Assembly (NCBI GenBank): GCA_964648855.1
Contig: CAZYLT010000011.1
Location: forward strand, 2,158 to 66,157
Origin: an uncultured archaeon
GTDB lineage: Archaea > Asgardarchaeota > Thorarchaeia > Thorarchaeales > Thorarchaeaceae
Length of the DNA: 64,000 nt
Direction: 5' to 3'
The position numbers were made by a program, and so were the translations under genes. The notes below the pieces were generated by a model. The model saw nothing but the letters and a program-made list of their open reading frames with translations, had not been told where the DNA came from and searched no databases. Below are positions 59,373-63,185 of this stretch, in pieces. Each line of letters opens with the position of its first letter. Position 1 is the first letter of the stretch.

Positions 59373-59684
59373 TTATTTATTGTTTATGCCCATCCGTAGT
59401 TTTTCCTCGACCTCCGATGGGGACATCCCGTGTATCACTAACGTTTTCTCCTTCGATAGATGACCTGAAGCAATGACAACCTCACTACTAGAAACTCCCA
59501 AGAGATTGGACAGTCTTTTTACCAGCTCTGCATTGGCTTTTCCTTTTCGGGGTGTACTCCTAAGATTAAGAACGATAAGGTCTTCGGCCATTTCTCGAAC
59601 GAGATTTTCTTCGTTCGAGTTGGGTCTCACGACAATGCGCAGGAATGTTCCCGTGTCAGCTTCCCAAATGGTTTTATCATTCAT
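59373..59684 (-). CDS. DUF167 (YggU/UPF0235) family protein
   Basis: TFLRIVVRPNS...TPRKGKANAELVKRLSNLLGV...VIASGHLSKEKTLVIHG; start at internal MNDK (ORF extends to 59828). Confidence 0.55.
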   Translation of the reverse strand: MNDKTIWEADTGTFLRIVVRPNSNEENLVREMAEDLIVLNLRSTPRKGKANAELVKRLSNLLGVSSSEVVIASGHLSKEKTLVIHGMSPSEVEEKLRMGINNK

Positions 59685-59733
59685 ATCTCTCAAATCATAC
59701 TTGGAATATTTGAATCTGTTCCGTCGTGAATTG

Positions 59734-59745
59734 TTTTTTATACAA
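59734..59745 (+). promoter_or_regulatory. TATA-like element upstream of the first profilin gene
   Basis: ttttttatacaa ~55 nt upstream of the 59800 ATG. Confidence 0.25.
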
Positions 59746-59799
59746 TACCTGCGGCTACAACTACGGAATTGAACAGATATTCTATGGAGTAAATTCGAA

Positions 59800-60180
59800 A
59801 TGTCTGATCCTATTATGGAAGCATACACACAAGCATATGAAGCGTCGAACCAGATGATTCAAGCCTTTGGAGTAATCAAGTCCGATGGGTCTGTTCTCTG
59901 GCAAAGCAATAACTGGGATTTGAGTGGTGATGCCCAGCAGCTAATCTCTGCTGTAAACAATCAATCAGCAAGTGTGAAACAGAATGATGTGAAATATAGT
60001 ACCATCAGAACAAGTCCTGAGAGCTTGGTTGCTAGGAATGTCCAAGGAAATGGAACTCTTATCCTTGCGAAGATTGAAGACGATAAATGGGTTGTTGCAT
60101 GGGCGGGTGCTGATGCGGCACCTGACAGTGTCTATGTGGATGTGGATCGCGCAGCCAAAGCACTGAAAGGACAAATATAG
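59800..60180 (+). CDS. profilin homologue 1
   Basis: 126 aa; block structure of eukaryotic/Asgard profilins (GVIKSDGSVLWQSNNWDLS...VKYSTIRTSPESLVARNVQGNGTLILAK...KWVVAWAGADAAPDSVYVDVDRAAKAL); note 'Loki profilin' GKDGKIITQTENWNIS / IKYMIVEN / GKGHVLICPI layout. Confidence 0.65.
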   Translation: MSDPIMEAYTQAYEASNQMIQAFGVIKSDGSVLWQSNNWDLSGDAQQLISAVNNQSASVKQNDVKYSTIRTSPESLVARNVQGNGTLILAKIEDDKWVVAWAGADAAPDSVYVDVDRAAKALKGQI

Positions 60181-60265
60181 AAGCGCCTTGCAGACCGACT
60201 ATATGGCACGTCTTTCTGCGTACATGCAACCCATTATCTATCTGATAAGGATGTGAACAAGAAGT

Positions 60266-60637
60266 TTGAGCTCTCGGATCGAGGATATTTGGAGTTCGTT
60301 ATACGCTAGCAATCCTAAGATCAAAGCTCTAGCTGTCATTGAGTCTTCCAGTGTTGTTTGGCAAACATCAAATTGGAATCTTGTTGAAGACGGCCCCACA
60401 ATTGTCGAGATGGCAAATAGTGGAGCTCCGACAATTATGCAAGGTGGAATGGAGTACTCTCATTTAGAATCGTCGGAAGATTACTACGTGGCTACAGCTG
60501 GTGAAAAGGGGCACCTACTAATCTCGAATGTCGATAAGAATCGGTCTATGGTCGCGTGGGCCGCGCCGGATTCTGACCCGGAGCTTGCCATAGTTGACCT
60601 CCAGTATTATGCCATATCCTTATGCAAGCAAAGCTAG
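60266..60637 (+). CDS. profilin homologue 2 (tandem paralogue)
   Basis: 123 aa; IKALAVIESSSVVWQTSNWNL ... MEYSHLESSEDYYVATAGEKGHLLISNVDKNRSMVAWAAPDSDP has the same block order as gene 1. Confidence 0.6.
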   Translation: MSSRIEDIWSSLYASNPKIKALAVIESSSVVWQTSNWNLVEDGPTIVEMANSGAPTIMQGGMEYSHLESSEDYYVATAGEKGHLLISNVDKNRSMVAWAAPDSDPELAIVDLQYYAISLCKQS

Positions 60638-60674: not shown

Positions 60675-61448
60675 CTATTCATTGGCGAAGATAATCTCGC
60701 GTATACGTCTGTGAAGATTTATGTAATCTTCTTGACCAACCGAATGTATTTCAATAAGAAATTCGAACAAATCAAGCAGGTCTTTGTCGGCTAAATCGCC
60801 TCTAATCATATTTGCGACTTCTTTCCGTGGTTGCATCTCTAACTTGTATTTCTTAAGCAGCAGCTCCACTAGTTCTTGTTGATGCTCCTGACTCAAACTC
60901 ACATCAAACTTCTTTATGAGTTTCTGGACATATTCTTTGCTTTTCTTTTTGAGCACCTTTTCATCGGCGTCAAGCATTCCTGTTGTGAGCACGAACCCCT
61001 TAGCTGTCCTCTGATAGTAATCCGTAGTTCGTTTCCCTGTTGTGACCGTGCCATACTTGATTACGTAGTCGGCATCAATGAGTTTAGGGAGGTGGTGATA
61101 GACTTGATTCTTGGTTATTTCTTCCGCTCCCTCCACCTTCGTTGACTGTTTCACGATTTCAACCACGGACAAAGCATGTCGCTGGACTTCACGTTGGCGG
61201 ATGATTAAATCCCCCGTCTTCTCATCCCGTTTCTCTGTCGTGACAGTGTCAGGCATTCCCTCCCTCAGTACTCTAAGAATTGAAAGCCTTGCGCTATCAT
61301 CCAGCTCAGCAGCTCTCTCCGGATCCTTTATGAAAACGATCTCTTCCTGAGGTTTCTTCCCCTCTTCCGTTAATTCGATACCTTCTAGGCTATCTGGAAT
61401 GTCTGCGTTCAATGTCCTTCCGTCCACTTCTACTGCAGCTAGGCACAA
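60675..61448 (-). CDS. winged-HTH transcription regulator (ArsR/TrmB-like N-terminus) with coiled-coil C-terminal region
   Basis: DDSARLSILRVLREGMPDTV HTH-like segment; remainder charged and helical. Confidence 0.4.
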   Translation of the reverse strand: MCLAAVEVDGRTLNADIPDSLEGIELTEEGKKPQEEIVFIKDPERAAELDDSARLSILRVLREGMPDTVTTEKRDEKTGDLIIRQREVQRHALSVVEIVKQSTKVEGAEEITKNQVYHHLPKLIDADYVIKYGTVTTGKRTTDYYQRTAKGFVLTTGMLDADEKVLKKKSKEYVQKLIKKFDVSLSQEHQQELVELLLKKYKLEMQPRKEVANMIRGDLADKDLLDLFEFLIEIHSVGQEDYINLHRRIREIIFANE

Positions 61449-62885: not shown

Positions 62886-63185
62886 TTATTCGACAGGAAA
62901 TTCCCTTTCCTCTGGGTGATCAAGAACAAATCTAATTTCATAAAGCCTATCTGCGATAGCCTGTCCCCTATCCGTCAGAGCAAGATAGGGGCTTCCTGCT
63001 CCCCCCTTATACTCGTTGGCAAGTTGTAATTCTACCAATCTAGACTTGATGGCTTCGAATGAAGCCTCGGGGTCATCAACGAGATCTTGCAGACGGGAAA
63101 TGAGGTCCCGTTCGAACTTGTCACTCCATTTTAATGCAAACAGGAGTTCAAGGACGGGTCTTTGTATCAGGTATTCGAGAGACAT
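62886..63185 (-). CDS. small hypothetical protein (possible winged-helix)
   Basis: 99-aa ORF; weak HTH-like pattern. Confidence 0.25.
   Translation of the reverse strand: MSLEYLIQRPVLELLFALKWSDKFERDLISRLQDLVDDPEASFEAIKSRLVELQLANEYKGGAGSPYLALTDRGQAIADRLYEIRFVLDHPEEREFPVE

Follow-up and report, generated by a model that had tools for sequence, protein, structure and literature searches.

Profilins are among the few eukaryotic signature families of Asgard archaea with biochemical data, and they have served as an argument that a regulated actin cytoskeleton predates eukaryogenesis. Akil and Robinson reportedly described in 2018 the structures of Odin profilin (PDB 5ZZA), Loki profilin-1 (5YED/5YEE) and Loki profilin-2 (5ZZB). 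The Lokiarchaeia carry several profilin paralogues, including three profilin-like proteins in 'Ca. L. ossiferum', and our literature searches found no report of these paralogues as a conserved tandem pair. The closest described protein to the locus presented here is thorProfilin (TFG12995.1) of the Thorarchaeota metagenome-assembled genome TEKIR_14, whose nuclear magnetic resonance structure is PDB 7PBH (Survery et al. 2021; Inturi et al. 2021/2022). This protein slows the elongation of rabbit-actin filaments in total internal reflection fluorescence microscopy, binds a polyproline peptide of VASP weakly, with a dissociation constant of ~250-500 µM, and co-localises with F-actin in HeLa cells (PMC8410842; bioRxiv 10.1101/2021.08.06.455371). 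Here we analysed a stretch of 64,000 nucleotides from an uncultured archaeon (contig CAZYLT010000011.1 of assembly GCA_964648855.1, positions 2,158 to 66,157 of the forward strand; hereafter the window), which encodes a close relative of thorProfilin (open reading frame 1, ORF1; profilin A) followed by a second, divergent profilin (ORF2; profilin B), and we found that this pair is ancient, conserved and characteristic of the class Thorarchaeia.

A preliminary description of the locus, made from the letters alone, had proposed two adjacent profilin homologues here, and their coordinates, plus-strand orientation, lengths, motifs and 85-nt distance all held. ORF1 matches the Pfam family PF00235 over profile positions 6-124 of 127 with 28.2 bits (E 2.2e-6), above the 25-bit gathering cut-off, and 118 of its 126 residues (94%) are identical to chain A of 7PBH over the full length. 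With its matching genomic context, ORF1 is by sequence the orthologue of the published thorProfilin, an already known protein, and it should likewise adopt the fold, bind polyproline weakly and influence the elongation of actin, as reported for thorProfilin. Its family comprises more than 120 homologues, almost all from Thorarchaeota. Several of them, as well as profilins of the Jord/Frey and P0166 families, carry the JGI/IMG label 'predicted regulator of Ras-like GTPase activity (Roadblock/LC7/MglB family)', which on clear profilins is probably an annotation transfer between two similar folds.

ORF2 has no Pfam match, even at E up to 10; NCBIfam holds no model matching either ORF, and within the B family the Pfam Profilin model matches just two of nine members, at E 0.002 or weaker. 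This failure is a limit of model sensitivity and not evidence against homology. ORF2 is 32% identical to ORF1 over 125 residues (BLASTP, E 2e-19), and the profiles of the two families align with an hhalign probability of 99.8% (E 2e-27), a similarity far beyond chance. Searched alone against the PDB sequences, ORF2 matches 7pbh (E 2.8e-14), Odin 5zza (4e-7) and Loki profilin-2 5zzb (5e-6), while the B-family profile matches 7pbh (3.2e-27), 5zzb (1e-13), 5zza (3.8e-13) and Loki profilin-1 5yed (1e-11), with no non-profilin match at E up to 0.01. Furthermore, the AlphaFold2 model of ORF2, built from an input alignment of 45 sequences (predicted local distance difference test, pLDDT, 92.2; predicted template modelling score, pTM, 0.86), predicts an N-terminal helix (residues 4-15), seven strands, a short helix (43-51) and a C-terminal helix (105-121). 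The modelled protein thereby reproduces the block structure proposed earlier and has the arrangement of a profilin, a central antiparallel beta-sheet flanked on one face by the terminal helices and on the opposite face by short ones. The six best Foldseek matches of this model in the PDB are all Asgard profilins, with Odin 5zza ranking first (template modelling (TM) scores 0.86/0.89, root-mean-square deviation (rmsd) 1.9 Å), followed by Loki profilin-2 (5zzb), Loki profilin-1 (5yee) and 7pbh, and then by eukaryotic profilins; the query-based TM score is 0.86-0.90 for the Odin and Loki structures (rmsd 1.9-2.4 Å) and 0.75 for 7pbh. Neither of the two outcomes named beforehand as speaking against a profilin, the absence of a significant match or a different best fold, was observed. 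In TEKIR_14, the orthologue of ORF2 (TFG12994.1) is annotated as 'hypothetical protein'. ORF2 is clearly a profilin that the domain libraries have overlooked, and profilin B is a new, fast-evolving, unannotated subfamily of a known kind of protein.

Like the Odin and Loki profilins, B retains the (Y/W)Q(S/T)xNW strand, the beta4 Tyr and the G-x-G-H turn; in contrast to them, it lacks the long 'Loki loop' insertion (an alignment gap) and has lost the beta4 Lys and Ser that they conserve, and its identity to them is 24-28%. To thorProfilin, ORF2 is only 26-32% identical. The eukaryotic profilin isoforms (PFN1/PFN2 and the plant families) share the fold (Foldseek from rank 7, TM ~0.7) and the theme of duplicated profilins with divergent ligand affinities, but they stem from independent duplications and are 9-16% identical to ORF2, and the eukaryotic polyproline residues W3, H133 and Y139 are conserved in neither paralogue of the Thorarchaeia.

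To describe the distribution of the pair, all stop-to-stop ORFs of the loci were scored with hidden Markov models of both families (A, ORF1-like; B, ORF2-like). The set comprised 71 distinct loci, namely the window, two metagenome loci and the 69 loci from species-representative genomes after removal of one duplicate. Since the 69 genome loci encoding relatives are essentially all labelled Thorarchaeota, with TEKIR_14 closest (94%), the window comes from the genome of an Asgard archaeon of the Thorarchaeota that is closely related to TEKIR_14. In virtually every locus, A is directly followed by B on the same strand. Complete A-B pairs are present in 64 of the 71 loci and B is recognisable in five more, so that the pair extends to 69 of 70 assessable Thorarchaeota loci. 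B is present without a canonical start codon at the expected position in L010, L012 and L014 and lies partly within a 100-N scaffold gap in L067, the A gene of L072 is cut at the contig end, and L019, which ends before the point where B could appear, is not assessable. The sole locus without B is L032 (4380-5200), where unrelated sequence directly follows profilin A, which could reflect an insertion, a rearrangement or a mis-assembly. Among the 64 complete pairs, 63 have a spacer of 53-105 nt between the two genes and one has a spacer of 187 nt, B is an intact ORF of 120-126 aa across all 64, and the conserved block reads OPT transporter (-), DUF167 (-), profilin A (+), profilin B (+) and a protein of ~250 aa (-). 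The claim of a tandem duplicated pair therefore stands as far as adjacent profilin paralogues are concerned, but the pair is not recent; instead, it is ancient and class-wide. Searching the literature, we found neither the B family nor a conserved tandem pair of Thorarchaeia explicitly described, the 2018 study of Akil and Robinson lying outside the coverage of these searches, and no mention of the pair was found under the accessions TFG12994/TFG12996 in the supplements of the 2021 paper.

The two paralogues evolve at very different rates. Across 2016 genome pairs, A proteins are on average 75% identical and B proteins 48%, B diverging more in 100% of the pairs, and in the library clustered at 50% identity A collapses to one or two representatives and B to about a dozen. 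In the 86 pairs whose dS is not saturated, the Nei-Gojobori method gives a median ratio of non-synonymous to synonymous substitution rates (dN/dS) of 0.042 (A) and 0.100 (B); the comparison of the window with TEKIR_14 yields 0.039 and 0.100, respectively, at dS 0.75-0.90 (0.90 for B). Both genes are under purifying selection, and given its median dN/dS, B is a maintained gene and not a decaying one. Among 1.84 billion representatives, the closest relatives of B outside the two families are annotated profilins of Jord/Freyarchaeia, Heimdall/Hod and Helarchaeota. One of these relatives, P0149 (with P0258, 88% identical), obtains similar scores from the A and B models and combines features of both, with an A-like MSDP, a B-like NNPQI...WQTSNWN and the pan-Asgard GQGH. 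The genes of P0149 and P0258 (L078 6001-6378 and L080 6001-6378; GCA_964589775.1 and relatives, an Asgard lineage) lie in the slot of the A-B pair, divergent from DUF167 and with an OPT transporter nearby, but only one profilin gene occurs there. The OPT protein of this locus is 44% identical to that of the window, just under the range among the Thorarchaeota loci. This single-copy arrangement is a candidate for the state before the duplication. In a neighbour-joining tree with 300 bootstraps, A and B are each monophyletic, with 94% and 87% support. The B profile also matches many longer proteins, of 219-770 aa, that combine a profilin-like domain with other sequence (e.g., P0154, P0155, P0159, P0170, P0171, P0178, P0181 and P0193), among them a Helarchaeota protein of 246 aa that has a linker rich in Gln, Pro and Thr as well as a C-terminal domain, which suggests that multidomain proteins with profilin domains exist in Asgard archaea.

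Investigating the residues that separate the two families, we found that both share W-Q-(S/T)-x-N-W, the beta4 Tyr, a Gly in the turn between beta5 and beta6 and, in the C-terminal helix, the initial Pro and an Asp. The alignment of nine B sequences has 17 invariant positions. B has kept the invariant core of W-Q-T-x-N-W, Tyr64, Gly82-His83 and Pro105. A set of 30 pan-Asgard positions was defined by a conservation of 60% or more among 33 other Asgard profilins; of these, 18 are preserved in A and 16, mostly different ones, in B: A retains the beta4 Lys-Tyr-Ser, Asn80, Gly83, Asp40, Asp44 and Gly30, and B retains Leu12, Ile19, Ala23, Thr34, Ile46, Gly61, Thr77 and His83. Conservation has been lost throughout B, somewhat more so in both terminal helices, helix 2 and strand 3 than within the core of the sheet. 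B is also more acidic, with an average net charge of -4.3 versus -0.7 for A. The polyproline-site positions named for thorProfilin (V24, Y28, T29, W53, K139, L141 and I145 in 7PBH numbering) correspond to I5, Y9, T10, W34, K120, L122 and I126 in ORF1, and in the B family to I5 (98%), W9 (100%), a variable position, W32 (100%), I117 (58%), L119 (89%) and another variable position. Hence the putative polyproline groove of B appears partly conserved, with an invariant switch from Tyr9 in A to Trp9 in B. Arg74 of human profilin is a classic site of actin-binding mutants, and its equivalent in ORF2 is Glu68; as a sign of lost actin binding this was rejected, because the Odin and Loki profilins co-crystallised with actin have Asp or Glu there.

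The signals around the two genes are consistent with a shared transcript. Upstream of A, a run of at least six A/T bases stands at a fixed position (median -61 from the A start) in 64 of 64 loci, and the element TTTTTTATACAATA is conserved between the window and L008; from its position, this A/T-rich element may act as the promoter. TATA-like hexamers occur upstream of A in 50 of 64 loci versus 11 of 64 upstream of B. An earlier formulation of ours, according to which there is no promoter before B, was overstated by a strict regular expression; a looser test keeps the contrast between A and B and at the same time reveals a TATATGG motif 63-66 nt before the B start, found only in the window, L009 (TEKIR_14) and L020-L024 (TCTATGG in L023 and L024). 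Each gene has its own Shine-Dalgarno-like (SD-like) 4-mer, at -11/-12 of the A start in 60 of 64 loci (mostly ACGGGGTGAA; GGGGTGA-type) and ~12 nt before the B start in 57 of 64. The A start is ATG in 56 of 64 loci and the B start is TTG in 30, ATG in 30 and GTG in four, and T-runs of at least five occur in the spacer in seven of 64 loci. Taken together, A and B are probably co-transcribed. A candidate intercistronic RNA hairpin, a GGGG...CCCC stem-loop 20-35 nt after the A stop in many spacers, was rejected as a finding: the spacers are more stable than shuffled sequence, with a mean RNAfold z of -1.14 and 25% below -2 (64 loci), and more stable than four control regions (-0.01 to -0.51), but a simple stem-scoring statistic is barely above the controls, RNAalifold on the 22 alignable spacers recovers a 4-bp helix only, with little covariation, and the spacer of the window itself is unstructured (z -0.30).

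Overall, we regard A and B as an ancient conserved profilin paralogue pair of the Thorarchaeia for which a division or shift of ligand specificity is the probable and likeliest reading, since A and B have preserved different portions of the residue set conserved across Asgard profilins. A, the slowly evolving copy, would then be the housekeeping profilin and B the specialised one. B would have arisen by tandem duplication near the base of the Thorarchaeia; it has kept the profilin fold, and its protein sequence has since changed about twice as fast as that of A, with purifying selection still acting on it. A single transcript from a promoter upstream of A probably carries both genes, each with its own SD site, and the weak TTG start that often follows the site of B would lower its output relative to A. 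The ligands divided between the two might include actin or an actin-related protein, proline-rich partners and lipids. The sub-functionalisation suggested in the preliminary description is compatible with the unequal rates, the purifying selection and the complementary residue retention, and it may be read into them at that strength. A further-reaching version, in which B would be a functionally distinct second regulator of the actin cytoskeleton that is co-expressed with the canonical profilin in all Thorarchaeia, e.g., acting on an actin-related protein or on another proline-rich or lipid partner, is more tentative and in our estimate has rather less than an even chance.

Several observations weigh against this reading. 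In the tree, support for A and B as sisters is just 41% in a simple neighbour-joining analysis, and the B branches are the longest, which makes the topology unreliable; for these reasons the in-situ tandem duplication near the base of the Thorarchaeia is inferred mainly from synteny. The TATATGG motif, at -66 of B in the lineage of the window, could be an internal promoter, or chance, and it is the reason why we call co-transcription probable and no more than that; moreover, an 85-nt spacer is long for an archaeal operon. Considering the protein, the beta4 Lys and Ser missing from B belong to the pan-Asgard set, and the B proteins of the window and of TEKIR_14 are atypical in having Ser94 (60545-60547) where 63 of 65 B proteins have Trp, a residue found at the equivalent position in 75% of the A proteins as well; Ser94 is a lineage-specific change at a near-invariant position of B. 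Finally, mapping residues onto known sites cannot say whether B binds actin.

The same data bear on four other explanations. That ORF2 is a decaying or non-functional duplicate whose frame is open by chance could be suspected from the missing Pfam and NCBIfam matches, the TTG start, the much faster evolution compared with A and the loss, in the copy of the window, of a Trp that is otherwise 97% conserved. However, a frame of 120-126 aa kept intact class-wide in the 64 complete pairs, a median dN/dS of 0.10 (0.100 at dS 0.90 between the window and TEKIR_14), 17 invariant positions in nine B sequences, a confidently predicted fold and a conserved SD site speak for a maintained gene, and selection and conservation together effectively refute decay. 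A pair that arose by a recent tandem duplication in the genome of the window only would likewise be adjacent, on one strand and of similar length, but the two proteins are just 32% identical, they fall into separate clades (94% and 87% bootstrap) and the pair recurs in 69 of 70 assessable loci of different Thorarchaeota species, a distribution that refutes this origin.

The third explanation involves the small-GTPase regulators of the Roadblock/LC7/MglB type, whose alpha/beta sandwich is similar to that of profilins and whose name is used in some A-family annotations, including the JGI names on several A-family proteins. Roadblock structures appear among the Foldseek matches of ORF2 from rank 9, and the Thor Roadblock protein 7f8m reaches E 0.074 with ORF2 in the PDB sequence search. 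Their structural fit is nevertheless much poorer, with rmsd of 6-7 Å and TM of 0.60-0.69 against 1.9-2.4 Å and 0.86-0.90 for the Odin and Loki profilins; significant sequence profile matches are to profilins only, neither ORF matches Robl_LC7 (PF03259) in Pfam at E up to 10, and the orthologue of A is an experimentally solved profilin that affects actin. It is therefore highly improbable that ORF2, or both ORFs, belong to this type. By analogy with paired Roadblock/LAMTOR-like proteins, A and B might instead form an obligate heterodimer or complex, their adjacency then serving stoichiometric co-assembly and not divided function, and the strictly conserved adjacency, the probable co-transcription and the relation of the profilin fold to the dimer-forming Roadblock fold would fit such an arrangement. 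What weighs against it is that profilins known so far, those solved from Asgard archaea among them, work as monomers in complex with actin: 5zza, 5yee and 5zzb are 1:1 complexes with actin, thorProfilin A was purified and solved alone, and the differing strengths of the start codons argue against 1:1 production. We consider the heterodimer unlikely, and divided or shifted ligand specificity remains the preferred reading of the pair.

The comparison across loci also concerns the published thorProfilin itself. The protein of 144-145 aa was described with 18-20 disordered N-terminal residues that were read as a regulatory 'N-terminal extension', its authors noting that an annotation error was not fully excluded. 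In the window, an in-frame TGA (59770-59772) lies 10 codons upstream of the ATG at 59800, with no start codon between the two, and the extension therefore cannot be encoded there. At the site of the annotated upstream ATG of TEKIR_14 the window has ACC, and between this site and the conserved ATG the two sequences differ by a 1-nt indel (59734-59802 versus 2910-3075 of L008). Across the Thorarchaeota loci, a stop codon stands within two codons 5' of the conserved A start in 38 of 70, no in-frame ATG, GTG or TTG lies between the stop and that start in 45 of 70, and it is the conserved ATG that the SD element precedes. Other long A gene calls carry 'extensions' of unrelated sequence, and the 18-19 extra residues by which thorProfilin differs from ORF1 are absent or unrelated in other species. 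Additionally, the upstream ATG of TEKIR_14, immediately 3' of the TATA-like element, would precede the expected transcription start. The 'extended N-terminus' of thorProfilin is thus very probably a start-codon miscall, judging from these alignments, and the construct studied very probably carries a non-native N-terminal peptide, which affects the published view of 'N-terminal extensions' modulating polyproline binding.

The features of the locus and its immediate neighbourhood are collected in the following table.

Table 1 Coordinates of the profilin pair, its putative expression signals and the adjacent genes in the window.
Feature	Position	Strand	Description
Profilin A (ORF1)	59800-60180	+	ATG start, 126 aa, VLWQSNNWDL; Pfam and PDB matches
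Profilin B (ORF2)	60266-60637	+	TTG start, 123 aa, VVWQTSNWNL; divergent second profilin
A-B spacer	60181-60265	+	85 nt, probably intercistronic
SD-like AAGGATGTGA in A-B spacer	60247-60256	+	Precedes profilin B start
TATATGG motif in A-B spacer	~60200-60206	+	66 nt upstream of B start
A/T-rich TATA-like element TTTTTTATACAATA	59734-59747	+	Mid of the 115-nt divergent intergenic region between DUF167 and profilin A
Shine-Dalgarno-like GGAG	59786-59789	+	10 nt 5' of profilin A ATG
DUF167 / PF1765-like (YggU-like) gene	59373-59684	-	Divergent from profilin A; TIGR00251 match
Conserved 257-aa neighbour	60675-61448	-	Convergent with profilin B; no curated family; possibly winged-helix

The DUF167 gene matches TIGR00251 with 60.3 bits (cut-off 35). 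The listed minus-strand ORF of 151 aa at 59373-59828 is, from comparison with relatives, an over-extension of this gene, since L001 and L008 call it as 103 aa, equivalent to the extent given in Table 1. A DUF167 homologue adjoins the profilin gene in all 76 loci with a match, including the single-copy lineage (L078-L081), and a single A/T-rich element lies midway between the starts of DUF167 and profilin A; a bidirectional promoter shared by the two genes, or a functional link between them, is possible. For the 257-aa neighbour, matches to the winged-helix families PadR, HTH_20 and ArsR are all sub-threshold, its C-terminal half is probably helical, and in 55 of 57 loci a homologue lies on the minus strand no farther than 700 nt downstream of B. 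Antisense ORFs overlapping the profilin pair (e.g., 59965-60174, minus strand) were treated as chance ORFs, as they are short and lie inside frames under strong purifying selection. The Rfam model of the histone 3' UTR stem-loop (RF00032) is matched below threshold at 63027-63071 (minus strand) of the window (24.8 bits versus a gathering cut-off of 34, E 0.0014); this match lies inside a conserved 99-aa ORF (62886-63185) and is most likely due to chance. As stated in the preliminary description, no actin gene was found in the window; a six-frame tblastn search with a hand-entered human beta-actin sequence gave a best E of 0.54.

In conclusion, the Thorarchaeia encode a second profilin that is missed by domain libraries and called 'hypothetical', which means that censuses of eukaryotic signature proteins under-report. 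The overall picture of Asgard cytoskeletons is unchanged by this, and we regard the importance of the finding as moderate. Beyond annotation, the pair and its single-copy syntenic relative constitute a clean natural experiment on the divergence of profilins after duplication. If B is indeed a distinct regulator, the locus would be a prokaryotic and pre-eukaryotic case of specialised profilin isoforms, with the single-copy sister lineage providing the ancestral comparison.

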